This document shows positions 34,172 through 45,967 of a stretch of 64,000 bases of DNA, in pieces. Source of the stretch: an uncultured Actinomycetota bacterium (lineage in GTDB: Bacteria; Actinomycetota; Actinomycetes; Streptosporangiales; Streptosporangiaceae); assembly GCA_963745575.1 (NCBI GenBank), contig CAVUYA010000030.1, forward strand, positions 27,913-91,912, read 5' to 3'. The translations under genes and the position numbers were made by a program. The stretch's first letter is position 1. The number at the start of each line of letters is the position of its first letter. The notes beneath the pieces are model-generated. The model saw only the letters and a program-made list of their open reading frames with translations. It had not been told where the DNA came from and searched no databases.

Positions 34172-34424
34172 CCGCGGAGGCGGCACAGAGGATCGGGCGG
34201 AGCTCGGTGCGGTCGAGTGTAAGAGCCTTGCTGGCCGCGGCGGCCAACTCGTGCCGGACGTGGCGCCTGAGGCTTGTTCTGAGGCGCACCGAGGGCTAAC
34301 AGATCAAAAATCTTTTCGATAAATATTTCTGGTACTGGCCAGATGTGATGGTTTTGTCGGTGCCCATCGATACCGTGGTTAGCGACAAAGTATGACGACC
34401 GGCCTGCGCCGAGGAGGTGAGTCA

Positions 34425-36690
34425 ATGCCGGATCAGGCGCCCGAACCAGGCCAGGACGGCGAGCAGCCCGCCACCTCACCAAGCGGCCAGCACTACCTCG
34501 ACTGGCAGGCGCTGCTGGACGCGCTGGCCGCAGGCGGGCTGCTGGACGGCGACCCGGACGATCAGGACGCCGCCGCGGCCGAGGACGGGCACATAAATCA
34601 GCCGCTGCCGCCCGGGCAAGCGGGGGCGCTGGCGGTCGAGCATATGGCGCCCGGCCCGGTCCAGGCCGGTTGGCTGGCCGCGGCCGCCACTGAGGCGGGG
34701 AGCCTGGATGAGTACGGGCTGGCCGGGGTGGCGATCGCCGCCCGCCAGCTCGCGTCCTGGGCGCAAGCCGCCGAACTATCCGCCGTGGCGCAGATCACCG
34801 CCCGGGCCGCCGCTGCCGACCGCAGGATCGGCCTGCACCCGGATGGGCGGCCGGCGCGGCTGTGCCGCGACGCGGTCGGTCAGGTGAGCCTGGCGCTGAT
34901 GCTGACCGACCACGCTGCGGCCGGCTGGGCTGACCTGTCCATCACCCTGGCCTGGCGGCTTCCCGAGACGGGAAGGGCGCTGGCGGCCGGGACCATCGAC
35001 CTGGCCCAGGCGAAGGTGATCGCCGAGACCACCAGCGTGCTGTCCGAGAACACCGCCCGCATGGTCGAAGATGCGGTCTTGCCCGACGCCGGACGGCAGA
35101 CCACCGCGCAGTTGCGGGTGCGGGTGCGCCGCGCGGTGATCGCCGCCGACCCGCAGGCGGCCGAGCGGCGGCGGGAAGAAGCCGAGCGGCAGGCCAAGGT
35201 GAGCCTGTACCCCGGTGACGACGGGACCGCGACGCTGGCCGGTGCCGGGTTACCCGCCGTGGAGGCGGCGGCGGCGATGGCGCGGATCACGGCGATCGCC
35301 CGGGCGATGAAGGCGGCCGGGCAGGGCGGCGGTCTGGACCTGCACCGGGCCAGGGTGATGCTGGGCCTGCTGCTGGGCACCCTGCCCTACATCCCCCCGC
35401 CCGGCGGCGCCCCCGAACCCGACCCGCCGCCCGGCGCTGATGACAGCCCGCCCGGCGATGGACCCGGCCCCGGCCCCGGTGGTCACCTCGCCGGCAGCGG
35501 CTCCGGCGGCCACGACCGGGGCGGCGGGCCTGAGGACAGTGGCCCTGGCCGCAGCTCCGGCCGCGCACCGTGGGACGACCCGCCCGCCCCGCGCGATGAG
35601 GACGCCCCAGACGACGACGCTCCGGATGAGGACGGCCGCGATCACGGCGGCGACCCCGGCGACGGCCCGGATGACAGCCGCGAGGACGGCGAGGATGACT
35701 GGCCCGGGACCGGGCCGGTACCGCCATGGCCAGGCCTGGGCGCGATCCCGCCCCCGCTGGCCCGCCCCCGTCCCGCCGGCGGGCGGCCCGCGCCAAGGCT
35801 GCTGGACCTCACCCTGCCCTGGGCCACCCTGGCCGGACACTCCGCCGCGCCCGGGCTGCTGGGCCGCATCGGCCCGATCACCGCCGTCCAGGCCCGACAG
35901 CTCGCCCACGCCGCCCAAGCCGACCCGGCCGCCCAGTGGCGCATCATCGTCACCAACCCCGCCGGGCAAGCCATCACCGTCACCCGCATTCCCCGCCGCA
36001 GCCGCGACGGCCCCGCTCCGGCCCGCGCCAGTCCTGGCCTGGCCCGCGATGGCCCTGGCCCGGCCCGTGATGGCTCTGGCCCGGCCCGTGACCGCCCCTG
36101 GCCTGCCGCGCCGGCCCGGATGCCGACCGCGGAAGCGCGCCCGGCGCCGGACTGGTCGGCCGCGTCACCCTGACCATCACCCAGGACACCCTCACCAGCC
36201 ACCAGCAGGCAGCCGACCCGAGGCCACCCGCCGGGACAGCCAGGCCCGGACCACCCGCCCGGGCAGCCAGGCCCTGACCACCCGCCCGGGCAGCCTGACC
36301 CGGACCACCCGCCCGGGCAGCCAGACCCGGACCACCCGCCGACATCACCGCCATGGCACTGCACGCCGCCGCCCGCGCCCTGCACACCGCCCTGGCCCAG
36401 GCCCGCGCCGACGCCGCCGCAGGCGGGTGCGCCCACCATGCCCGGTCCGATGCCTACCGGCCCCCGCCGCGGCTGCGCGAGCAGGTCACCGCCCGCGACC
36501 TCACCTGCCGCCACCCGGCCTGCCGCCAGCCCGCCTGGCGCGCCGACCTCGACCACACCCGCCCCTGGGAAGACGGCGGCCCCACCTGCACCTGCAACCT
36601 CGGCGGCGCCTGCCGCCGCCACCACCAGCTCAAGCAACACCCCCGCTGGAACCTCCGGCAAACCCGCCCCGGCCACTTCACCTGGACCAC
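34425..36690 (+). pseudogene. DUF222 / HNH endonuclease (REP13E12-type), 5' part; interrupted by the serine-recombinase element and internally disrupted
   Basis: GGAGGTGAG RBS plus ATG 34425. DUF222 core (LSAVAQITARAAAADRR...IDLAQAKVIAETTS...). Frame change near 36140. In-frame TGA at 36275 and 36296. HNH part DLTCRHPACRQPAWRADLDHTRPWEDGGPTCTCNLGGACRRHHQLK. Native sequence ends at ...FTWT(T) at 36690. Confidence 0.8.
36222..36340. repeat. 27-nt tandem repeat (about 4.5 units) inside the DUF222 gene
   Basis: Units GGACCACCCGCCCGGGCAGCCAGGCCC at 36222, 36248, 36275, 36302 and 36329 (the last partial). Two variant units create in-frame TGA codons. Confidence 0.8.
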
Positions 36691-36736
36691 CTTGGCTAGA
36701 ACTGTATTACTCACACTTTGCGGGTAGACTCATGGC

Positions 36737-38188
36737 ATGAGCAAGACCCCAGGTCAGCAAGGCCCCATCGACATCTACGCCCGCGTTTCCCGCAAGGGTG
36801 ACAAGCGGCAGCAGAGCACAAGCGGGCAGGTAGGCGCCTGCCGCGCGGTTCTGGCCGAGCGCGAGCTACCCGCCGGCGAGACCTTCATCGACCCCGGCCT
36901 GTCAGCGTGGAATCCCAAGGTGACGCGGCCCGACTGGGACGCGCTCATGGCGCGGCTGGAGAGCGGCGCGTCGGCCGGGGTCATCGTGTTTGACCTTGAG
37001 CGGTTCGCGCGCCGGCCCGCCGATGGCGAGCGGCTGATCGCTGCGGCTGAGCGTGGCTTGCTGGTGCTGGACTCCGACGCAGAGTTTGATCTTTGCTCCG
37101 CGAGCGGCAAGAAGGCATTCCGCGACGCGATGAACGCAGCGGCGTACTACTCCAACCGGCTGTCCGACCGCGTCAAGCGCGGGAAGGCAGCGAAGGCACG
37201 CAACGGGCAGGTTGACCGGGCCGGCTGGCAGGATCGCCCGTTCGGGTGGGAGCCGGACGGCATCACGCAGCAGCCGGCCGAGGTGAGCATCCTGCGCGAG
37301 ATCGCGCGCCGTGTCCTCGCCGGCGAGTCGCAAGACGTGATCGCGCTTGACCTGAACGGCCGGGGGGTCACCACGACGCAGGGCAAGCCATGGCAGGCCA
37401 CGCGCATCCGTGAGCTACTTCTCCGCGAGCGCAACCGGGGCAACCTTGAGCACTGCGGCGTGATCGTCGCGAAGCTGCCCGGGGAGCCGGTCATCGACTC
37501 CGCGACGTTCGACCGGCTGAGCGCGAAGTACGCCGCGCGGCGCGCGGGCCGGCCCTACACCCGCACGTACCTCGCCAGCGGCGCGGCAATATGCGCGGTC
37601 TGCCGGCTGGCGCTGACCGGGCGCCCGGTGCCGCGACGGCGGCCCTACCCTGACGGCTCGGTCGCGCGAGAGTACCGGTGCTGCAAGAAGGTCGGCACCG
37701 CTGCGTGCGGGACGGTCGCCATAGACCAGCGAGCGCTCGACGCCGCCACGCGGGAACTGGCCATCGCCATCCTGTCCGACCCGCGCCACGCCGCGCAGGT
37801 CGAGGCCGCCGCGGCCCGGCACATCGAGGAGGCAACCGCGCTCGACAGCCTGATCGCCGAAGCGGAGACGACCGCGCTACAGATCGGCGACCGGCTCGGC
37901 CGCGGCGAGATCACCCTGGCCCGTCACGACACGATCATGGGCCCGCTCGACGCGCGCCTGGCGGACCTGCGCACGAAGCGCGAAGCGCTCAACGGCGGCC
38001 CGGCCGAGCCGTTGCCCGCAGCGCAGTCGCGCGCCGAGTGGGCGGCACGGTGGGACGCCGCCGAGCCCGCCGAGCGCCGGACCCTGCTGGCGATGGCACT
38101 GCGCGGCCGGATCCTGGTCGTCGGCACGGCCGACCCCTCCGAGCCCGCGAACGTGGCGCGCAGGCTCAGCATCGGGGACCGGCCATGA
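36737..38188 (+). CDS. Large serine recombinase (integrase)
   Basis: 483 aa. Resolvase-type N-terminus IDIYARVSRKGDKRQ (catalytic Ser), recombinase domain, Cys-rich zinc ribbon (CAVCRLALTG...CCKKVGTAAC) and a C-terminal coiled coil. Confidence 0.9.
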   Translation: MSKTPGQQGPIDIYARVSRKGDKRQQSTSGQVGACRAVLAERELPAGETFIDPGLSAWNPKVTRPDWDALMARLESGASAGVIVFDLERFARRPADGERLIAAAERGLLVLDSDAEFDLCSASGKKAFRDAMNAAAYYSNRLSDRVKRGKAAKARNGQVDRAGWQDRPFGWEPDGITQQPAEVSILREIARRVLAGESQDVIALDLNGRGVTTTQGKPWQATRIRELLLRERNRGNLEHCGVIVAKLPGEPVIDSATFDRLSAKYAARRAGRPYTRTYLASGAAICAVCRLALTGRPVPRRRPYPDGSVAREYRCCKKVGTAACGTVAIDQRALDAATRELAIAILSDPRHAAQVEAAAARHIEEATALDSLIAEAETTALQIGDRLGRGEITLARHDTIMGPLDARLADLRTKREALNGGPAEPLPAAQSRAEWAARWDAAEPAERRTLLAMALRGRILVVGTADPSEPANVARRLSIGDRP

Positions 38189-38514
38189 GCGGCCCGTCCT
38201 ATGTGGAGCTGGAGATCCTGTGCGAGCGCTGCGAGCGCGCGGGAAGGCGACGCAGGCTCGCGCTGTTCGGCTCCTACACCTACCCCGGCGCCGACCGTAC
38301 CCCGTGGGAGCAGGGCCGCCGCTACGGCGGCGCGAAGGTGCGCTCGCTGTGGTGGGGACCGGACGGCAACGACAAGGTCAAGCTCTCCTGCGACGGCACC
38401 GACAGCGGGCGGGGATGCCAGAACATGCCCGACATCACCCGGGCGTGGGTGATCGAACAGCTCGCCGAGATCTGGGCGCCGGACAGCCGCGAAACCCGGA
38501 CCGTGCTGCGGTAG
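38185..38514 (+). CDS. Hypothetical protein (Cys-containing, 109 aa)
   Basis: ATG 38185 overlaps the integrase stop (ATGA). MSGPSYVELEILCERCERAG... In frame with the tail of track ORF 37678-38514. Confidence 0.5.
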   Translation: MSGPSYVELEILCERCERAGRRRRLALFGSYTYPGADRTPWEQGRRYGGAKVRSLWWGPDGNDKVKLSCDGTDSGRGCQNMPDITRAWVIEQLAEIWAPDSRETRTVLR

Positions 38515-38619
38515 GGTGATCGCAGCCACAACGGCATAGGCCGCCGCGGAGGGCCGGACCCGCGGACATGCGCACCTCGGCGGGTGACGCGAGAATCTCG
38601 TGTCCCGAGGTGCTGCCAG

Positions 38620-38883
38620 ATGGCCGCCAAGTCCAAGACCCGCCGGACTATCTCCGGCAAGATCGCCGCCATCGAGCGGCACAACGGCCCCGGTGATCCC
38701 CGCCTGGACCCGCTGAAGATCGCCGGAGCCGCGCTGGCCATCGCCGAGATCGCCGAGTGGGCCCGCTGCGCCGCCGCGGCGCTGCCCGTGTTCGACCAGG
38801 CCGAGATCGACGCCGCGGGCCGCGCAGCCGCCAAGATCGACGCCAGGCGCGCCCGCAAGGCGGCCGGCAATGCGGCCACCTGA
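38620..38883 (+). CDS. Hypothetical protein
   Basis: MAAKSKTRRTISGKIAAIERHNGPGDPRLDPLKIAG... within track ORF 38584-38883. No recognisable motif. Confidence 0.4.
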   Translation: MAAKSKTRRTISGKIAAIERHNGPGDPRLDPLKIAGAALAIAEIAEWARCAAAALPVFDQAEIDAAGRAAAKIDARRARKAAGNAAT

Positions 38884-39136
38884 CAACAAGGCGGGCCGCC
38901 CCCGGCAAGGACGGCCCGCAACGTCAGCCCCGGCGACGGCGCTCGACGCTCTCACCGTACCGCGCGAGCTGGCGGCGTGGCGCTGCTGGACGCACCGGGC
39001 CCGGCACGCATGCGGGTGCGGCCGGGCGGCCGACTGCCTGCTGAACGACCCGCTGCCCGTGCACGCGCCGCAGCCTTGCGCCGGCCAGTTCGGCGAGGAC
39101 GGCCGCTGGCGGGCGCATTGCCGGGCCGCGTCGTGA
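38870..39136 (+). CDS. Hypothetical Cys-rich small protein
   Basis: 88-aa ORF with high third-position GC by eye. Stop overlaps the next GTG start (GTGA 39133-39136). CWTHRARHACGCGRAADC...C...C. Confidence 0.35.
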   Translation: MRPPDNKAGRPRQGRPATSAPATALDALTVPRELAAWRCWTHRARHACGCGRAADCLLNDPLPVHAPQPCAGQFGEDGRWRAHCRAAS

Positions 39137-39537
39137 CCGGCTGGTGCGCCGCACCCGGGTGCGGTAACCATCTGCCCCCGCGCAGGCGCCGGTTCTGCTG
39201 CGACCTCTGCCGCATCCGCGGGCAGCGGGCCGAGAACCGCACCGAGAACGGCGATTTCGGCCGGGCCGCGATCCGCATGATCCGCGCGATGGCCAGGCGC
39301 GTCGGCGCGGCCGACATCGCGGAGTTCGGCGCCATGTGGGAGGTCATGACCGAGGCCGAGCGCGCGGTAACCGACACGATCGACGGCCTCCAGAAGAGCG
39401 GCTACTCCTGGTCCCAGATCGGCGCTGAGATCGGCTGGAGCAAGCAGCGGCTGTCCCAGTGGAGGCAGCGCCGGGGCGCGGTCCAGCGTAAACGGACCGT
39501 TGACGCCGGGCCGGCGGGAACAGGTGACCCGGCATGA
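39133..39537 (+). CDS. Zn-ribbon plus HTH DNA-binding protein
   Basis: VTGWCAAPGCGNHLPPRRRRFCCDLC (CxxC..CxxC), then KSGYSWSQIGAEIGWSKQRLSQWRQ (HTH-like). Confidence 0.5.
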   Translation: MTGWCAAPGCGNHLPPRRRRFCCDLCRIRGQRAENRTENGDFGRAAIRMIRAMARRVGAADIAEFGAMWEVMTEAERAVTDTIDGLQKSGYSWSQIGAEIGWSKQRLSQWRQRRGAVQRKRTVDAGPAGTGDPA

Positions 39538-39749
39538 CCGGGTGCGCCGACTCCCGCGGCGACGGAGAGACCATGCTGGCGCGGGCCGAGCGGACGGCCA
39601 GGGGCGCCCGGCTGTTCCGCCAGATCGCTGATGACGCCGAGGCCGAGGTCGTACGCGCGTACGACCGGTGGAAGGACGCCGAGGCCAGGGCCGACACTGC
39701 CGAGGACGAGGCGCGCCGGGCCGCTGCTGCGCTGGACGGTGCGGCATGA
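39534..39749 (+). CDS. Hypothetical small helical protein
   Basis: 71-aa ORF, ATGA-coupled at both ends (39534-39537 and 39746-39749). Confidence 0.45.
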   Translation: MTGCADSRGDGETMLARAERTARGARLFRQIADDAEAEVVRAYDRWKDAEARADTAEDEARRAAAALDGAA

Positions 39750-41329
39750 CCGGCCGCCCCGGGCACTGCCTCGCGCCAGCGGGCAAGGACTGCTGGCTCG
39801 GGGCCTGCGCCTGCCCGGTGCCGGAACCCGCGTACGACCCGGGCCCGCTGCCGCTGGCCGGGTCGGGCGGCGCGGAGCTGCTCGATGAGGTCGCCGCGTT
39901 CCTAGAGAGCTACGTCATCTTCCCGGGCCGCCACGCCGCCGCCGCGGTGGCGCTGTGGGCCGCGCATACCCACCTGGTGAGCCGGTTCGAGAGCACGCCC
40001 CGGCTGGCGCTGCTGTCACCGGAGAAGCAGTGCGGCAAGTCCCGCGTGCTCGAGCTGCTCGAGCTGCTGTGCGCCGGGGCCGAGACGCTCTCCGACGCCA
40101 GCCCCGCCTACCTGTACCGGCGGATCGGTGCCGGGTCGGTCACCATCCTGCTCGACGAGGCCGACGCGATCTGGAAGCGCGGCAAGGCCGACGAGACCGC
40201 CGAGGCGCTCCGCTCGGTCGTCAACGCCGGGCACCGCCGGTCGGCGACGGTCGGCCGGGTGGAAATGAGCGGCGTCACGGCGAACCTCGTCCGCTTCCCG
40301 GTGTACGCCCCGGCCGCCATCGCGGGCATCGGCAGCCTGCCCGACACGATCCTGGACCGGGCCGTGATCCTGCGCATGCGGCGCCGGGCACCGGGCCAGC
40401 GGATCCGCGGCTACCGGGAGCGCACCACCCGGCCGCAGGGCGAGGCGCTGCGGGACCAGCTCGCCAAGTGGGCCGCGGACGTGGCCGACCGCGTCGGCGA
40501 CCCGTGGCCCGACATGCCGTCCGGCGTGGCCGACCGCCCGGCCGACGTATGGGAGCCGCTGCTCATGGTCGCCAGCCTCGCGGGCGGCGGCTGGCCGAAA
40601 CGGGCCGCCGAGGCATGCGCCGCGTTCGTCGCCGACGCCAGCCACGACACCGAGACCGCGGGCACCCGCCTGCTCGCCGACCTGCGCGACGTGCTCGGCG
40701 GCCAGGACGAGCTGTGGACCGGCGAGATCCTGTCCGGACTCCACGCGCTGGACGAGTCGCCGTGGGGCGAACGGTACGGCCACCCGCTGACACCCCGTCA
40801 GCTGGCGAAGCTGCTCAAGCCCTACGGCGTGACCTCAGCGCAGGTCCGCAAGGGCGAGGTGAACCGCCGGGGCTACCGGCGCAGGGACCTGCGCGACGCC
40901 TGGCAGTCCTACCTGCCCCGGGCAGCCGCTACAGCCGCTACAAGCGCTACCGGCCTGGCCAGCGCAGTAGCGGACGTAGCGGCTGTAGCGGACACCCCGG
41001 CGGCGTGCACGGTGTGCGGCAATCCGCTTGACCCGGCGCTCGCCGGGCTCGGCGACACCACGCACCCGATGTGCGACCCCGAAGGAGAGACGACAGTGAA
41101 GCTTTCCAGCCAGCCGCCCGTCAACAAGCTTCTCAGGTCCCAGCCGGGCCGGGCGCGGGCCGGCCAGTGCCGGGCCTGCCTGCTGGTGACTGATGACCTG
41201 CGCAACGGGCTCTGCCGCGACCGTGCCGCATGCGAGGCGCGCCAGCCGGCCCTGGACCTCGGCGCCGAGGTGAAGCCTGGCGGCAGCTTCGGGCACCCGG
41301 ACGCTTCGGACAGCGCGGATGGCTCATGA
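39746..41329 (+). CDS. DUF3631-like ATPase (putative replication/primase-associated protein of actinobacterial prophage-like elements)
   Basis: 528 aa from MTGRPGHCL. FLESYVIFP...ALWAAHTHL, deviant Walker A EKQCGKS, Walker B TILLDEADAIW, NAGHRR. C-terminal CxxC clusters. Confidence 0.6.
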   Translation: MTGRPGHCLAPAGKDCWLGACACPVPEPAYDPGPLPLAGSGGAELLDEVAAFLESYVIFPGRHAAAAVALWAAHTHLVSRFESTPRLALLSPEKQCGKSRVLELLELLCAGAETLSDASPAYLYRRIGAGSVTILLDEADAIWKRGKADETAEALRSVVNAGHRRSATVGRVEMSGVTANLVRFPVYAPAAIAGIGSLPDTILDRAVILRMRRRAPGQRIRGYRERTTRPQGEALRDQLAKWAADVADRVGDPWPDMPSGVADRPADVWEPLLMVASLAGGGWPKRAAEACAAFVADASHDTETAGTRLLADLRDVLGGQDELWTGEILSGLHALDESPWGERYGHPLTPRQLAKLLKPYGVTSAQVRKGEVNRRGYRRRDLRDAWQSYLPRAAATAATSATGLASAVADVAAVADTPAACTVCGNPLDPALAGLGDTTHPMCDPEGETTVKLSSQPPVNKLLRSQPGRARAGQCRACLLVTDDLRNGLCRDRAACEARQPALDLGAEVKPGGSFGHPDASDSADGS

Positions 41330-41416
41330 GCGCAAGCCGCGCCAGCCAGGCGCCAGCCAGCGAGCCGCATGGAAGGCCGCACTCGCAGCAGACGGCCAGG
41401 GGCCCTGGGCCCGCGC

Positions 41417-41584
41417 TTAGCTGCCGCTAGGCGGCGCGTGGCCCATCGCGGCGATGCTAAGCGCGTCCTGGGGTTCCCGGGCCCGTGAGCAGTTCATGAG
41501 AATCGGGCCGAGCCACATGCCTACCGCTAGCGAAACACCGAACCAGGCGACAAGGCCGATCGGCACCCACCACCATGCATTCAT
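41417..41584 (-). CDS. Small one-TM protein (55 aa)
   Basis: GGGAGAAGG RBS. MNAWWWVPIGLVAWFGVSLAVGMWLGPIL...APPSGS*. Paralogous in layout to 41792-41953. Confidence 0.45.
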   Translation of the reverse strand: MNAWWWVPIGLVAWFGVSLAVGMWLGPILMNCSRAREPQDALSIAAMGHAPPSGS

Positions 41585-41791
41585 GCCCGCCTTCTCCCGC
41601 CTGGGCTGCCCATGAAATATCGCACGTTTGCCGTCCGCTTGTCGTTCACTTGCACGACGGCTCGGTCGGCCTGTCAAGGCGCAGGGCCCGCCCGTGGGCC
41701 CACGTCCCCCGCTGGCGCCGCGACCTCCACTACACCGGCCGGCACTCAGGCGACGCGGCACAGTACACAGCCAGGCGCCCTGCCGCGCGGT

Positions 41792-41953
41792 TTAGCTGTC
41801 ACTGGGCGGCTGCCCCTCCCGGGGCGGCTTTCGGCGCCTGGCGCGTTTCTCCGGGTGCCGCAAGAGCGCCCAGCCAAGCACCAGCCCGGCCGCTACCGCG
41901 GGGGCGAGCCAGGCGGCGGCCAAGCCGGTCAGCACCCACGACCACGGGCTCAT
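41792..41953 (-). CDS. Small one-TM protein (53 aa)
   Basis: MSPWSWVLTGLAAAWLAPAVAAGLVLGWALL...QPPSDS*. High GC3. Same N- and C-terminal pattern as 41417-41584. Confidence 0.4.
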   Translation of the reverse strand: MSPWSWVLTGLAAAWLAPAVAAGLVLGWALLRHPEKRARRRKPPREGQPPSDS

Positions 41954-42379
41954 CCCTAACCCCAAGCGGCACATCCGGACACTCGCCGTGCCCTCTACCG
42001 AGAACACGACCAGCCATGCCGATCCGTTACGGCCGGACGCCGCTACGGGGCCCCTTACGGCACGCGCTCGCACCGGGGCCGGTACCACACCGACCGGCAG
42101 ATGGCACACCAGACGGCGCACACGCAGAGTGACCACGGTCGGCCACCACCACCCCGGCACCCGGACCACCTCCCGGTCGGCACCCGCCTGCCACCACCCC
42201 GGGCGGACACCCCGCCGGGAAACCCGCAGGTCAACGAATCGCGCTGCGCGAAACGGGCATTTCTATGGCTGCCCGGTCAGCTAGATGTCCTGTGCCGGCC
42301 TGAAACAGAAAAACGCGGAACGATCTTGGATACGGCCGTGACTCTGGGTTACCGCTCGCCGGGGTCCTAGCCTGGGAGG

Positions 42380-42739
42380 ATGAGCGTCCCGAGGGCGCCC
42401 GCGGGCATGGGCCCGGCCGGGCGCCGGCTATGGCGTGAGGTGCTCGCGGATTTCGAGCTCGGCGGCCACGAGCAGCTGATCCTGGTCAACGCGTGCCACG
42501 TCGCCGATACCTGCGCGGCGCTGCAAGAGGTGATCGCGGCGGACGGGCCGATGCTGACGGACCGGGAGGGCGGCCCGCGGACGCATCCGGCGTGCCGGGA
42601 GCTGCGGCAGCAGCGGATCACCCTGGCGCGGCTGATCGTGTGCCTGCGCGTCCCGCTGGGCGACGAGGACGCCGGGGGAGACCGGTCGCAGTACCGGGGG
42701 ATGCGCGGAGCGTATGGGCTGCGGGGCGAGGCGTCGTGA
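42380..42739 (+). CDS. Possible P27-family phage terminase small subunit-like protein
   Basis: GGGAGG RBS. 119 aa. The pattern G..LW.EV...ELGGHEQLILVNACHVADTCAALQEVIAADG....D..GG.R.HPACRELRQQRITLARL resembles P27-type TerS. Recognised by eye only. Confidence 0.4.
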   Translation: MSVPRAPAGMGPAGRRLWREVLADFELGGHEQLILVNACHVADTCAALQEVIAADGPMLTDREGGPRTHPACRELRQQRITLARLIVCLRVPLGDEDAGGDRSQYRGMRGAYGLRGEAS

Positions 42740-42954
42740 GGCGCCGCCGGCCGCGGGAGGCGCCCCCGCCGTGGCTGGACGAGTTCGACCCGGATGCGTG
42801 GTCGGATGCGTCCGATGCCGGGTACGCGCCGGGCGTCCGGGATTACCGCGCCGGGTGCCGGTGGAACGATGCGGTCAATGAGTGGCGGCGGGTGCATGGC
42901 TGGCGGCCGGGGGAGCTGGCTGCGTTGCTGGCGTCACTGGGCGAGCCGGTGTGA
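42736..42954 (+). CDS. Hypothetical protein (VRRRRP... paralog 1)
   Basis: GTG 42736 overlaps the upstream stop (GTGA). VRRRRPREAPPPWLDEFDPDAW... Confidence 0.45.
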   Translation: MRRRRPREAPPPWLDEFDPDAWSDASDAGYAPGVRDYRAGCRWNDAVNEWRRVHGWRPGELAALLASLGEPV

Positions 42955-43256
42955 GGCGCCGCCGGCCGCCGGGGCCGCCGCCGCGGATCGAGCCGCCGTC
43001 CTGGTACAGGTCCTTCGACCCGGCGATGTGGGATGAGCCGGGCCCGCAGGAACTGGCGATGATCGAGGGCAGCTGGCGGCACTGGCCTGAATGCGCTGAC
43101 GGCAGCCCGGAGTGGCTGGAGTTTCACGAGACCCATGCCCGGCGCCGCTGGGAGCTGGCCCGGTACGCCTACCGGCGGAAGCATCCGGACTTGGCCGAGC
43201 AGGAGTTCGCCGAGATCCAGGCCCGGCGCGCGGAGAGACGCACGCAGGATTTGTGA
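42951..43256 (+). CDS. Hypothetical protein (VRRRRP... paralog 2)
   Basis: GTG 42951 overlaps the upstream stop (GTGA). VRRRRPPGPPPRIEPPSWYRSFDPAMW... The first 19 nt are identical to those of 42736. Confidence 0.45.
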   Translation: MRRRRPPGPPPRIEPPSWYRSFDPAMWDEPGPQELAMIEGSWRHWPECADGSPEWLEFHETHARRRWELARYAYRRKHPDLAEQEFAEIQARRAERRTQDL

Positions 43257-43272
43257 AACGGCCAGTACACTA

Positions 43273-43467
43273 ATGCGCATGAGCACTGCTGATGCGGCGC
43301 GGGCCGAGCAGGCCAGCCACGCGGCCCGGGCGAGGTGGGAGCGGGAGGGCAACCCGGTTCTCACCCGGTCGGTGCAGGTCGTTGTCACCCGCGCTGATGA
43401 GCTCACCGACAGCCAGCGGGCCGAGCTCGGGGCCGCGATCACCGAGGAGGCACCCGATGGGGTTTGA
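43273..43467 (+). CDS. Hypothetical small protein
   Basis: MRMSTADAARAEQASHAARARWEREGNPVL... tail of track ORF 43135-43467. Confidence 0.4.
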   Translation: MRMSTADAARAEQASHAARARWEREGNPVLTRSVQVVVTRADELTDSQRAELGAAITEEAPDGV

Positions 43468-43933
43468 AGCACTGGAGTTCTTGCGGGCAGCCGGTGGCGA
43501 CCCGGACCCGGCCGGTTCCCGCCTGGACCGGGCGGCAGCAATGGAAGCCATTGAGGACGCCGCGGAGGCCCGGCAGGCTGAGCGACGGCGGGCCGAGGCC
43601 GAGGAACGCCAGGAGGTCCGCGCGCTGATGAATCGCCAGTGGGGCGATCCGCTGGGACAGATGCGCATGGCGCAGGCCGACATGGTGAACCTGTCCGACC
43701 GGGTGAGCGACCTGCGGGACCAGCTGGCGAAAGCCGAGGACCGCCTGGACCGGGCGCGTTCCAATCTCACCTTCTGGGCGGAACGCGGCCTGCTGGCCGA
43801 GGAAGCCACGCGGCGCAGCTACCCGAACCCGGTGGAAGCCGCAGTGATGCGGGCGGCTGACGTAGCGCGGGAAATCCACGAGAACCGCGACATCCTCGAA
43901 CGGGCACGGCGGGCGGTGCGCCATGGCCATTGA
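43457..43933 (+). CDS. Hypothetical coiled-coil protein
   Basis: MGFEALEFLRAAGGDPDP... with long charged heptad-like stretches. Overlaps its neighbours by 11 nt at each end. Confidence 0.45.
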   Translation: MGFEALEFLRAAGGDPDPAGSRLDRAAAMEAIEDAAEARQAERRRAEAEERQEVRALMNRQWGDPLGQMRMAQADMVNLSDRVSDLRDQLAKAEDRLDRARSNLTFWAERGLLAEEATRRSYPNPVEAAVMRAADVAREIHENRDILERARRAVRHGH

Positions 43934-44132
43934 CCGGTACGCGCACGCCCCGATGGAGGGCGCAGCCGCGGCGGCGAAGGAGGCCGCGGCGCGGCAGGTC
44001 CAGGCCGACCTGGACAGCGACCTCCATTCGGCGGAGGTCCAGGCGGCTCACACCGGCAGGCCCACCCCGGCGCAGGCGGTAGCGCGCGGGGTCACTCCCT
44101 CAAGCGGCAGCGGCAGCGGGACCGCGGCCTGA
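43923..44132 (+). CDS. Hypothetical small protein
   Basis: 69-aa ORF MAIDRYAHAPMEGAAAAAKEAAARQ... Confidence 0.35.
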   Translation: MAIDRYAHAPMEGAAAAAKEAAARQVQADLDSDLHSAEVQAAHTGRPTPAQAVARGVTPSSGSGSGTAA

Positions 44133-44226
44133 CAGACGTCCCCGCAGCGGGTTACTGCCTCCGGCCGGGGACGAGCACGGCACCCCGTTCTTGCTGGCGG
44201 GGTGCCGTTGCTTCTCGCGCTGCGTG

Positions 44227-44542
44227 CTACTCGCCGCCGAGGTACTGACGGCGGAGCCGCTGGCATGCGGCAAGGTCGCGCTCCAGTGCCACAATCCGCT
44301 CGTCCGCGGCCTCGCGGGCGGTGATCTCACCGGAGTCCTCGCGCTCGCGGATGCTGCGCAGGAACGCGTCGAGCCGGTCGTCCTCGGCCCCGATCTCGAT
44401 GTAGTAGCGCGTGTGCTGCTGTCTCCTCCTCCTCCTCCTCCTCCTCGCTGCCGGGCGGCAGGCACGGGCCGGATATCCAGCCTCCTATGTCACGTCTGAC
44501 GTTCGGGTCGGGCTGGTCGGTGGGACGATCTTCTGTAGCCAA
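44227..44542 (-). pseudogene. Hypothetical acidic protein with (Glu)8 tract; frame change next to the trinucleotide repeat as assembled
   Basis: Frame of ATG 44542: MATEDRPTDQ...GSEEEEEEEE. The protein-like continuation QQHTRYYIEIGAEDDRLDAFLRSIREREDSGEITAREAADERIVALERDLAACQRLRRQYLGGE* is in another frame that has no start codon. (CTC)8 at 44423-44446. Confidence 0.4.
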
Positions 44543-44627
44543 GGGGTTCCTCCTTGGTCAGGGCCCGGGTAGCGGCGTTCGCGCGCCGTCCGGGCCCGCC
44601 GCTATCTGCGGCAACTCGCAGACTACG

Positions 44628-44650
44628 CCTAGCATGCTTGCCATGCTAGG
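44628..44650. promoter_or_regulatory. Candidate operator palindrome in the divergent promoter upstream of the GntR gene
   Basis: CCTAGCATG-cttgc-CATGCTAGG (9-bp perfect inverted arms). A third CCTAGCATG half-site at 44683-44691 sits directly before GTG 44697. Confidence 0.4.
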
Positions 44651-44696
44651 CATGACCTGGATAGGTAGCACTGCCTGGCACACCTAGCATGATCAT

Positions 44697-44948
44697 GTGG
44701 AGGTCGACCCTCACTCTAAGGAGCCGTCCTACGCCCAGGTAGCGCGGCAGCTTCGCGAGCAGATCATGTCTGGCGAGCTTGGCCCGCGGGATCAGCTGCC
44801 GTCGCTCAAGCGCCTCATGCAAGAGACCGGGCTGGCGCAGGGCACGGTGCAGCACGCGATCCGGGTGCTGGAGGCGGAGGGCATCGTCTACACCGTCAGC
44901 GGGCGCGGGACGTTCGTCGTGCCCGAGGACCAGCGGCCGGGGCGCTGA
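44697..44948 (+). CDS. GntR-family winged-helix regulator (DNA-binding domain only, 83 aa)
   Basis: PSYAQVARQLREQIMSGELGPRDQLPSLKRLMQETGLAQGTVQHAIRVLEAEGIVYTVSGRGTFV. Confidence 0.85.
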   Translation: MEVDPHSKEPSYAQVARQLREQIMSGELGPRDQLPSLKRLMQETGLAQGTVQHAIRVLEAEGIVYTVSGRGTFVVPEDQRPGR

Positions 44949-44999
44949 CGGTACGGACACGCGAGCACGGGGCAGCGCGCCCATCGCTCAGCCGCGCGC

Positions 45000-45308
45000 T
45001 CAGGGTCGCTCATCTTCCGCGCGATCCTGGCCGCGTTTGACGAGCGCGGCATGTAGCTCTTGCCTGGCACGTGTCATCCGGCTCAACTCTCGGCGCAGTA
45101 TGCCGTGGAGCGAGTCAAGGTCAGCGAGGACTCGGCCGGCCATGTCTGCTGCTTCGGCCACGTAGCCAGCAGTGTCGGTGTCGGTCCGTTGGGCTAGCGC
45201 GTTCAGCGAGTCTTCAAGATCCGCCGCAAGATCGGATAGCCGCTCAACTTCCGCTAGCTGCGCTTGCATCCGGACTAGCGGGACGCACGGCCCGGTACCG
45301 GTGGTCAT
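45000..45308 (-). CDS. Hypothetical coiled-coil protein
   Basis: 102-aa acidic helical ORF. No motif recognised. Confidence 0.4.
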   Translation of the reverse strand: MTTGTGPCVPLVRMQAQLAEVERLSDLAADLEDSLNALAQRTDTDTAGYVAEAADMAGRVLADLDSLHGILRRELSRMTRARQELHAALVKRGQDRAEDERP

Positions 45309-45317
45309 GCGGCCAGG

Positions 45318-45512
45318 CTATGCCGCTTCCGACCGGATACGTGCGGACCATGCGAGCGGCCCCGGTCGCTCGCGCTGGACGGCGCAGAGCAGGTGGACCC
45401 ATCGCCCGGTGCTGACCAGCCGGCCGATTCGCTGGCCTGCCGTGACCGGGCCGCCGCATGCTGAGCAGACCGAGCTACGCCGCGCTTTCATCACGCGATC
45501 ACACGTGATCAT
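45318..45512 (-). CDS. Hypothetical small Cys-containing protein
   Basis: 64-aa ORF with CSACGGPV...LLC. Last ORF before attR. Confidence 0.35.
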   Translation of the reverse strand: MITCDRVMKARRSSVCSACGGPVTAGQRIGRLVSTGRWVHLLCAVQRERPGPLAWSARIRSEAA

Positions 45513-45616
45513 GCGTCAAGGTTACTTGACAAGTGATCTTCGCCCCGAGGGTACGCGCGTACCGTCCGGGCTAAGCTGACAGTGTGGCCAGGGTGTGTGT
45601 AAATAATCCAAGTCGA

Positions 45617-45667
45617 ACTCCCGCCGGGCGTACCTACACCACCGGCCCCGACACCCACCCCGTGTAG
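45617..45667 (+). pseudogene. 3' remnant of the split DUF222/HNH gene
   Basis: ACT CCC GCC GGG CGT ACC TAC ACC ACC GGC CCC GAC ACC CAC CCC GTG TAG = TPAGRTYTTGPDTHPV*, the expected conserved C-terminus following ...FTWT at 36688. Confidence 0.75.
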
Positions 45668-45710
45668 GTTCACACGGGCTCGATATCCACCCTGCGGGGG
45701 AGGCGAGGCC

Positions 45711-45814
45711 GGTAGGACACGCCGGTAGGACACGCCCGTAGGACGCGCCCCTAAGACACGCCCCTAAGACACGCCCCTAAGACACGCCCCTAAGACACGC
45801 CCCTAAGACACGCC
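45711..45814. repeat. 13-bp tandem repeat, 8 contiguous units
   Basis: GGTAGGACACGCC x2, CGTAGGACGCGCC x1, CCTAAGACACGCC x5. Starts 44 bp after the HNH stop codon. Confidence 0.9.
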
Positions 45815-45967
45815 CGATGCTCCCAGCCACTCCCATGTATCGGTAGCGCGGTTCGGCGCTCTTATCGGTAAGGGCTCTCGCAGCCCGATGCAGCTTGACG
45901 TGGTTGACACGGCCCGGCACACGGCCCTGGGGCGGCCGACGGGCCCGGCTTTGAATGGGGGCTGGTT

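Follow-up and report, generated by a model that had tools for sequence, protein, structure and literature searches.

A candidate capsid-less phage satellite with a phage small terminase gene and an AICE-type replication protein in a Streptosporangiaceae genome

Introduction

Can an element of 8.9 kb that encodes an integrase, a replication protein, and a small terminase subunit (TerS), and in which no virion gene is recognizable, be a satellite of phages? The question is raised by a locus of an uncultured Streptosporangiaceae bacterium of the Actinomycetota (GenBank assembly GCA_963745575.1, contig CAVUYA010000030.1, positions 27,913 to 91,912). The window, that is, the whole stretch of 64 kb analyzed here, has a GC content of about 73%, and the element occupies positions 36689-45618 in it. 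An initial annotation, made from the letters alone, had taken the element for a candidate phage satellite or, alternatively, for a decayed phiRv1-like prophage. The order of its genes (integrase, regulators, replicase, TerS, and accessory genes) is the SatelliteFinder core of the phage-inducible chromosomal islands (PICIs) minus capsid morphogenesis. Because of this layout and of the parallels with phiRv1, the element is read here as a capsid-less, TerS-only member of an actinobacterial satellite continuum. With modest confidence, I propose an integrated phage satellite that follows the 'type B' design of PICIs, lacks a capsid gene, and rests on a maintenance backbone of the type found in actinomycete integrative and conjugative elements (AICEs).

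The initial annotation had also supposed that such satellites are barely described in high-GC actinomycetes. This is not the case. In Mycobacterium tuberculosis, phiRv1 and phiRv2 already count as PICI-like satellites, and the elements called EPIPs, MulchRoom/MiniFlayer, and Ando have been published. The genes of phiRv1 are ordered integrase, excisionase, primase, terminase, protease, and capsid; its integrase, recombination directionality factor, primase, and TerS are Rv1586c, Rv1584c, Rv1582c, and Rv1578c, and Rv1586c has been found in REP13E12. The EPIPs are experimentally isolated satellites of the prophage HerbertWM (2025 preprint). What is new here is a minimal capsid-less form outside the mycobacteria, in which an AICE-type replicon is joined to a phage TerS, together with a conserved ACCTGAAAC site and a pairing of the TerS gene with a small gene, g10.

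For comparison, I searched for TerS homologs; 92 were found at E < 1e-5, from which about 25 loci (cited below by L numbers) were recovered, and a TerS-profile search of genome contigs returned 5 loci, none of them from the source genome. Close homologs stem from Streptosporangiaceae metagenome-assembled genomes. The sole close copy of the element, L009, has the same locus of MerR gene, DUF222 gene, and element, with 93.9% identity and with many indels of the kind typical for sequencing error.

Results

Insertion into a DUF222/HNH gene

Where does the element begin and end? Reading of the junctions places it at 36689-45618 (8.93 kb) within the 3′ end of a DUF222/HNH gene, in agreement with the extent first proposed. 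The dinucleotide AC, found at 36689-36690 (attL) and at 45617-45618 (attR) on the forward strand, is the sole sequence common to both junctions; the left flank ends with ...TGGACC-AC and the right flank picks up with AC-TCCCGCC. No long att repeats were found, which leaves this 2-bp core as the only one. Large serine integrases use a 2-bp core as a rule. When the flanks are joined, ...FTWTT continues in frame into PAGRTYTTGPDTHPV and a stop codon, the product ends with ...GHFTWTTPAGRTYTTGPDTHPV, and the HNH C-terminus is restored. The displaced 3′ end of the gene (encoding PAGRTYTTGPDTHPV), reconstructed from the reading frame, is at 45619-45668 on the forward strand.

The left part of the target gene (34392-36688, forward strand) consists of a DUF222 N-terminal region at 34392-36173, whose open reading frame (ORF) matches Pfam DUF222 at 1e-10, and an HNH-type Cys/His region at 36353-36688, in whose translation CRHPAC...HH..K..H motifs are visible. 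According to the ORF coordinates within 34392-36727, frame 0 holds the DUF222 part, which stops at 36173, and frame 2 holds the HNH part, which begins at 36353. In the interval between the two parts there are proline/glycine-rich tandem repeats of 21 and 27 nt (36020-36342). The gene is split, and the split reflects either a pseudogene or an assembly error within the repeats. Another repeat array, of about nine tandem copies of a 13-nt unit that drifts from GCCGGTAGGACAC to GCCCCTAAGACAC, lies just outside attR, directly after the DUF222 stop codon (45695-45824); the L009 contig ends inside this array.

A large serine integrase of 483 residues is encoded at 36737-38188 on the forward strand, with its start 46 nt from attL. 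As proposed initially, it is a serine integrase, matching Resolvase (1e-17), Recombinase (5e-9), Zn_ribbon_recom (0.016), and phrog_95 (2e-64), and it is about 31% identical to mycobacteriophage serine integrases. Its position at one end of the element is that of a PICI integrase, and its insertion into a DUF222 gene parallels phiRv1, for which a serine integrase in a REP13E12/DUF222 gene is known from the literature. Compared with L009, substitutions in the integrase gene are in excess at third codon positions.

A phage small terminase subunit

Is the terminase-like protein a genuine TerS? The gene at 42380-42739 (forward strand) encodes a homolog of small terminase subunits of the P27/HK97 type, 119 residues in length, which may start at Met10. 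The protein matches phrog_1496 ('terminase small subunit') at 5.9e-16. In a tblastn search of 50,697 phage records, it matched gp2 of Bernal13 and its relatives at 3e-10 over 91% of the protein; gp2 of Bernal13 directly precedes the genes for the large terminase subunit (TerL), portal, and protease. Further matches are the 'terminase' proteins in eight records of EPIPs (about 10.9 kb; Mycolicibacterium aichiense), with 35% identity to that of WillG (E 4e-11). An AlphaFold (AF2) model made from 26 homologs had a mean predicted local distance difference test (pLDDT) score of 82. Its top PDB fold matches were the HK97 TerS structures 8pop and 6z6e (TM about 0.5, E only about 0.5), and its top 35 or so matches in BFVD are nearly all annotated as TerS, P27, or COG3747, with E values down to 2e-5. 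I consider the TerS call sound, as the initial annotation had it. An own TerS is also part of the PICI gene set.

Upstream of the TerS gene, a conserved cis region was found at 42255-42306 on the forward strand. It comprises the 13-mer GGGCATTTCTATG (42255-42267) and the octamer CCTGAAAC (42299-42306). In the window, the octamer has one copy, which precedes TerS by 74 nt. The EPIP WillG has the 13-mer as well, and in both sequences it lies upstream of the terminase gene. The sequence CTGAAAC, usually inside (G/C)ACCTGAAAC(G/A), was found on the same strand as TerS, 26-101 nt before the gene, in at least 10 loci, which are, beyond the window, L004 (position 1238), L007 (994), L008 (8090), L009, L011/12 (L011, 9961), L013 (5162), L014 (6315), L016 (5145), and L020 (9975). 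It is typically the sole copy, or one of two, per 6-20 kb in those loci, and variants with one mismatch were found in L010, L005, and L015. No copy of the motif precedes TerS in WillG or in the true phages Bernal13 and L021. The chance of a single random copy falling within that upstream interval is about 0.005 per locus. The recurrence of the motif therefore indicates a real cis element tied to the satellite clade of TerS. It is a candidate for a pac/cos packaging site or a late-operon control site.

The gene g10 (42951-43256, forward strand) encodes 101 residues with the motif RIEPPxWYRxFDPAxWDEPD...HxxHARRRW. Only 14 homologs were found among 1.84 billion representatives, and in every readable context they are encoded directly downstream of TerS-family genes: in L003 (6741-6980), L032 (424-798), L033 (873-1181), and probably L002. 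No match was found for g10 in Pfam, PHROG, NCBIfam, or PADLOC, nor for a g10 profile against PDB. From this gene order, TerS and g10 look like a conserved two-gene module. Among the small proteins encoded after TerS across the loci, almost no homology was detected, except for g10.

An AICE-type replication protein

The gene at 39746-41329 (forward strand) encodes a 527-residue protein matching Pfam DUF3631 at 3e-56. It carries ILLDEAD and a variant P-loop, PEKQCGKS, as expected from the DUF3631-like ATPase described previously. PF12307/DUF3631 was used as the marker of the replication protein RepAM in a survey of AICEs, and RepAM was shown to support autonomous replication of the AICE pMEA300 (Ghinet et al., PMC3218068). 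The AF2 model (pLDDT 77) consists of a P-loop/AAA+ helicase-like core and a winged-helix region, followed by a Cys-rich tail of low confidence. Its Foldseek matches are the helicase modules of MCM, PriRep1, poxvirus D5/E5, and African swine fever virus PrimPol (E about 1e-5, probability 1.0). Thus, the statement of the initial annotation that the element has no Rep does not stand; DUF3631 is RepAM, an AICE replication protein, and the model has a replicative helicase fold of the MCM/D5/PriRep1 type. With respect to the primase-replicase of PICIs, RepAM is a functional analog, not a homolog of Pri-Rep, and the element has no primase domain. More than 3300 DUF3631 homologs were found, and many are fused to Toprim/DUF3854.

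In the part encoding the low-confidence C-terminal region of RepAM, there is a 42-nt inverted repeat in perfect register and with 76% complementarity (40917-41000), which may form a structured site, for example, an origin. It drew miRNA-type Rfam matches, which were judged to be due to chance and rejected as RNA features.

How close is the element to AICEs? One Streptomyces plasmid, a circle of 14 kb that is evidently an AICE in its excised form, has the order int, HTH (helix-turn-helix), DUF3631, hypothetical gene, Prim-Pol, hypothetical gene, TraB, TraA, ..., GntR. Its RepAM is 49% identical to that of the element, and no TerS homolog was found in it. The element has a short winged-HTH protein of the GntR family (44697-44948, forward strand; 83 residues; Pfam GntR, 4.8e-17), which is the HTH domain alone, with no effector domain. 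This domain is 41.5% identical to the N-terminus of a 253-residue GntR regulator of the AICE plasmid (L023). Short GntR homologs adjoin integrases in L002 (76 residues, 51% identity) and in L004 (71 residues, 45%). The GntR protein noted initially is thereby confirmed as such, and it is a candidate repressor. Integrase and RepAM correspond to the integrase and the RepSA/RepAM/Prim-Pol replication module of AICEs. Since both RepAM and the GntR HTH are present, the maintenance backbone is AICE-like, the missing part being the Tra/Spd transfer module only, and the AICE as an alternative explanation is closer at hand than the initial annotation supposed.

Genes that are lacking

Profile searches were run for capsid, portal, TerL, and conjugation genes. 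No protein of the element matched a virion, lysis, conjugation, or defense family in Pfam, PHROG, NCBIfam, or PADLOC; in particular, no match to a capsid, protease, portal, TerL, connector, or tail protein was found in those libraries, and defense cargo was dismissed after PADLOC gave no match. Remnants of capsid, protease, or tape-measure genes were sought by tblastn with the proteins of related islands and all WillG proteins, and none were found; only TerS, the integrase, and RepAM were matched by the genes of relatives and WillG. After the integrase and RepAM, the largest ORF with no assignment is 158 residues, or 213 at most. No FtsK/SpoIIIE-type Tra translocase was matched, and all unassigned ORFs are within 213 residues. 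No canonical Walker A motif exists in the six frames of the element, the PEKQCGKS variant of RepAM aside. As far as they reach, library searches, remnant searches, and ORF lengths bear out the earlier observation that capsid, portal, large terminase, tail, lysis, and FtsK/TraB genes are lacking.

The element thus has no tail, holin, portal, or head-tail connector gene, as is the rule for PICIs. No capsid-morphogenesis gene was recognized either, g9-g12 having no match in any of the libraries; this gene is also absent in type B PICIs, such as the Staphylococcus aureus pathogenicity islands (SaPIs). With regard to the PICI regulator (alpA or stl type), the element has two HTH proteins (g5, phrog_686; GntR, PF00392), and no AlpA or Stl homolog was detected. 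The prohead protease and HK97-type capsid that follow the terminase in phiRv1-like elements were not found in the element. With EPIPs, the terminase alone is shared, and adaptor, stopper, capsid, and tape-measure genes were not found. As for a functional prophage, there was no match for TerL, portal, capsid, tail, or lysis genes, and the coding capacity is insufficient for them.

Relatives of the element

Is TerS without TerL common? The members of the TerS clade (41-97% identity) are nearly all in small islands or contigs that do not exceed about 10 kb and in which an integrase is present and TerL is absent. Four types were distinguished. The phiRv1-type locus L014 has Int-S, TerS, a protein of 207 residues, a head protease, and a major head protein of 486 residues, and L005 and L016 have TerS with protease and/or major capsid protein. 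In the tape-measure type, a tape-measure-like or SLT-transglycosylase gene lies within a few genes after TerS in L004 (1622-2428; SLT domain), L013 (5916-8258), L017/L006 (L017, 9573-11768), and L018 (779-3742), and before TerS in L020 (3798-8741). No capsid gene was found among the larger neighboring ORFs scanned in these islands. The EPIP preprint highlights the same odd pairing of TerS and tape measure. L013 has a terminal direct repeat of 111 bp in 10.6 kb and is therefore a complete circular or terminally redundant molecule.

The minimal type includes the present element and L019, as well as L010 (Int-S, HTH_36 initiator, TerS, and small ORFs in about 6 kb), L015 (Int-S, primase-RepAM fusion, and TerS), L002 and L003 (Int-Y/RepAM with a TerS-like gene), and L011/12 (Int-Y, Xis, AAA_25 helicase, and TerS). 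The order of true phages, with TerL after TerS, was found only in the distant L021. This sequence (IMGVR_UViG_3300044878_000250; 9844 bp with a 127-bp terminal repeat) encodes a TerS homolog, TerL (phrog_9, 4e-73), a serine integrase homolog, and a 504-residue ORF, and is apparently a very small complete element with both terminase subunits.

The close copy L009 is mosaic. The region 41350-44100, which contains the TerS module, is nearly identical, with 0-6 mismatches per 250 nt; RepAM diverges by 12-20%, and the range for RepAM and the integrase is 10-20%. This mosaicism indicates that either the packaging module has recombined recently or the metagenome assembly is chimeric. From the substitutions relative to L009, purifying selection is visible for the integrase, g2, and RepAM.

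Gene map and small genes

Gene calling was done with a codon model trained on the long ORFs of the window itself because of its high GC content. The element has about 14-16 genes, of which about 14 on the forward strand are supported and two, for small membrane proteins, are on the minus strand. Adjacent genes overlap by 4 nt (ATGA or GTGA) in six cases and by more in two. Of the chain of about 19 ORFs described initially, the overlaps are real; the genes are fewer, and they are not confined to one strand.

Five small genes lie between the integrase and RepAM genes on the forward strand. g2 (38185-38514; 109 residues; coding score 51.9) overlaps the integrase stop codon by ATGA and differs from its L009 counterpart by 12 synonymous and 4 non-synonymous codon changes. 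No family match was found for it in Pfam, PHROG, NCBIfam, or PADLOC. It may be a candidate recombination directionality factor, for which the analogy with iolg of the PICMIs of Vibrionaceae is a lead only. g3 (38620-38883; 87-99 residues; coding score 52.3) is 95% identical in L009 and has no family match. g4 (38870-39136; 88 residues) belongs to conserved small partners just upstream of RepAM genes; g4-like ORFs with 54-60% identity are directly upstream of the DUF3631 genes in L002 and L003. g5 (39133-39537; 134 residues) encodes a CxxC...CxxC zinc ribbon with a C-terminal HTH, as recognized earlier; it matches phrog_686 ('HTH DNA binding protein') at 1.3e-6 and Pfam HTH_23 at 0.003, and the two Cys pairs are read from the translation. 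g6 (39534-39749; 71 residues; coding score 25.7) encodes an alanine/glutamate-rich helical protein, overlaps its neighbors by ATGA on both sides, is identical in L009, and has no family match.

Between RepAM and TerS, no coding signal was found on the forward strand. On the minus strand, two candidate single-pass membrane proteins are encoded: tmA (41417-41584; 55 residues; MNAWWWVPIGLVAWFGVSLAVGMWLGPILMN...), a weak gene call, and its paralog tmB (41792-41953; 53 residues; MSPWSWVLTGLAAAWLAPAVAAGLVLGWALL...), for which a gene was called at the matching place in L009. Their paralogy is seen as the direct repeats D1/D2 with a spacing of 369-375 nt. They might be exclusion, toxin, or holin-like peptides.

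After TerS, the forward strand has g9 (42736-42954; 72 residues; coding score 16.7), which overlaps TerS by GTGA and has no family match, then g10, a weak ORF (43273-43467; 64 residues), g11 (43457-43933; 158 residues; coding score 51), and g12 (43923-44132; 69 residues; coding score 17.9; identical in L009; no family match). The g11 protein is a predicted coiled coil that was also called, with the same 158 residues, in the source genome (P0213). Its only homolog is the L009 copy, and its other matches are weak and of the coiled-coil type.

In the last 1.5 kb (44133-45616), GC is lower and the coding signal is poor. From the GntR gene to attR (44949-45616), GC is 0.66-0.70, coding scores are negative, and no convincing gene was found; this right arm is probably a regulatory or attP arm. 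Compared with L009, it has the highest density of mismatches and gaps in the element, and in its minus-strand ORFs the non-synonymous changes far exceed the synonymous ones.

In the window, no tRNA gene was found, and sigma-70 promoters and terminators gave nothing above chance. Four paralogous matches of about 135 residues elsewhere in the window were dismissed as ordinary response-regulator receiver domains.

Discussion

Comparison with known elements

The element resembles phiRv1 and phiRv2, compared here by gene content from the literature, in size (about 9-10 kb), in the large serine integrase, and in the REP13E12/DUF222-type target. With phiRv1 it shares the order of integrase, small genes, large replication protein, and P27-type TerS, and its clade relative L014 has the exact phiRv1 order of TerS, protease, and capsid. 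In contrast to phiRv1, the present element lacks genes for a prohead protease and a capsid, and its host is an actinomycete with 73% GC. The EPIPs (M. aichiense; WillG, OR387121) are also similar, with about 11 kb, a serine integrase, the homologous TerS, and the shared 13-mer. However, the head-to-tail adaptor, stopper, major capsid, and tape measure that are annotated in EPIPs have no counterpart in the element, EPIPs have no RepAM, and they were isolated as particles, whereas the present element is known only as an integrated sequence.

Integrase, regulators, replicase/helicase, an own TerS, and accessory genes in the absence of structural and lysis genes are what SaPI-type (type B) PICIs have, and the size of the element is near the PICI median of 9.5 kb. 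The proposed redirection of a helper TerL by TerS would be the pac-type mechanism of SaPIs. Unlike most PICIs, which use a tyrosine integrase, the element has a serine integrase; it has no homologs of Stl/AlpA, Ppi, and Cpm, RepAM replaces Pri-Rep, and its TerS is of the P27/HK97 type. The PICMIs also have a very small gene set with no capsid-remodeling genes and an ATGA overlap of int by the next gene, and their packaging as concatemers in full-size capsids is a plausible model for a genome of 8.9 kb. On the other hand, PICMIs lack homologs of terS, sid, and ppi and rely on a primase, whereas the element has its own TerS and a helicase-type Rep, and the sequences are unrelated.

The AICEs of the pMEA300 type, including the Streptomyces plasmid NZ_CP108973, have an integrase, RepAM/DUF3631 with a small upstream partner, and a GntR-family regulator in common with the element. 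AICEs with a serine recombinase inserted in endonuclease genes are also known. The element differs in lacking a TraB/FtsK translocase, TraA, Spd, and Prim-Pol. A phage TerS module fills the place of Tra/Spd, and the GntR protein is the HTH domain alone.

A possible life cycle

How might such an element spread? The short GntR HTH protein and/or the zinc-ribbon HTH protein would hold it silent until an infecting or induced helper phage lifts the repression. The integrase and a small directionality factor, possibly g2, would then excise it as a circle, and RepAM would amplify the circle. TerS may bind a site on the DNA of the element, perhaps the ACCTGAAAC region, and recruit the helper TerL, by which the DNA would be brought into helper-made capsids. 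Packaging as multimers is possible, as five copies make about 45 kb; alternatively, an unrecognized small protein might remodel the capsid. g10 may assist or bias packaging, for example, by acting on the helper TerS or TerL. The action of TerS is modeled on the SaPI precedent and the multimer packaging on that of PICMIs, and both may apply here only by analogy.

Weighing the alternatives

Several points weigh against the satellite proposal. The TerS protein is below the curated cut-offs (Pfam Terminase_4, 0.09; TIGR01558, 0.0016), and Terminase_4 is matched by only two of the 26 TerS family members. For about half of the genes, no function could be assigned, and g11 is an ORFan. The right arm of 1.5 kb has the look of non-coding or decaying sequence, and the DUF222/HNH target that of a disrupted gene. 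RepAM and a GntR regulator are hallmarks of AICEs and not of known satellites. L009, the sole close relative, is not a second insertion but the same one, at the same locus; it was therefore rejected as evidence of independent insertion, and it does not show independent mobility of this element. The 20-mer of the attP junction is absent from IMG/VR and the JGI metagenomes, and no empty attB was found, the 20-mer of the predicted attB giving seven chance matches, all outside DUF222 genes. For excision, replication, and packaging there is neither experimental nor sequence evidence, and no helper phage was identified.

What else could the element be? One possibility is decay: a capsid-encoding satellite of the phiRv1 type would have lost the protease and capsid genes and would now be an immobile remnant, fixed at the locus. 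The kind of target (DUF222/13E12-type), the integrase class, and the gene order are those of phiRv1; L014, L005, and L016 keep protease and/or capsid genes after TerS; the right arm (44133-45616) is poorly coding and the fastest diverging; L009 holds the element at the same site; and no excised form is present in IMG/VR or the JGI metagenomes. However, tblastn shows no trace of a capsid, protease, or tape-measure gene, and TerS, g9, and g10 are translationally coupled through 4-nt overlaps, with no room for head genes between them. The core genes are all intact, with the integrase, g2, and RepAM under purifying selection, and in L002, L003, L010, L015, and L019 the layout with no capsid gene is found again, together with unrelated integrases and replicases. 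I consider such a remnant unlikely, and the decayed phiRv1-like prophage of the initial annotation is weakened by the same observations. It is less probable still that the element is a non-conjugative AICE derivative or integrative mobilizable element that lost Tra/Spd and moves, if at all, by means of the TraB of a co-resident AICE or plasmid, with GntR exerting a Kor-like control and the TerS-like protein having another DNA-binding role. This would account for the RepAM of the pMEA300 type and for the identity of RepAM and of the GntR HTH with those of the Streptomyces plasmid. Against it, that plasmid has no TerS homolog, and the element has no FtsK/SpoIIIE-type protein, no canonical Walker A motif, and no ORF of TraB length; the Tra/Spd position is filled by a bona fide phage TerS fold, whose clade travels with capsid, protease, or tape-measure genes and with other replicases, not with Tra.

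It can hardly be correct that the element is an ordinary small prophage with virion genes diverged beyond recognition, even if about half of the ORFs have no detectable homologs. The element is only 8.9 kb in length, and the remaining ORFs (158 residues in the longest case, 213 at most) are too short for TerL, portal, an HK97-fold capsid, or a tape-measure protein; this explanation was discarded because the coding capacity is too small and no virion or lysis family was matched. The capsid-less satellite remains the best-supported reading, through the PICI layout and the presence of the TerS clade in islands with no TerL, and it departs from the initial annotation in having a Rep and an AICE-like backbone. 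Among relatives, the isolation of EPIPs as particles and the circular or terminally redundant L013 molecule speak in its favor, as do the conserved cis motif and the linkage of g10 to TerS. It may also be conceived, more tentatively and with some doubt on my part, that capsid-less actinobacterial satellites of this kind form a class of their own, which recurs and is derived from AICE backbones of integrase, RepAM with its partner g4, and a Kor-like GntR; the conjugative Tra/Spd module would have been replaced by a module for phage hijacking that consists of the ACCTGAAAC site, a P27-type TerS, and g10.

Significance

The ACCTGAAAC site and the TerS-linked g10 offer a concrete way to test packaging specificity. 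Both can also serve as simple markers in searches for further elements of this kind, which are probably overlooked by current satellite finders. The serine integrases that target DUF222/HNH genes may be useful tools. If the element is functional, it extends TerS hijacking of the PICI type to non-mycobacterial, very GC-rich actinomycetes, and the phiRv1 family would grade from capsid-forming through tape-measure-bearing to minimal TerS-only members. The RepAM/GntR backbone ties satellites to AICEs and suggests that a conjugation module can be swapped for a transduction module. If an AICE-derived satellite class truly exists, it would be a direct evolutionary bridge from conjugative elements to phage satellites, and it would define a new two-protein mechanism of packaging redirection.

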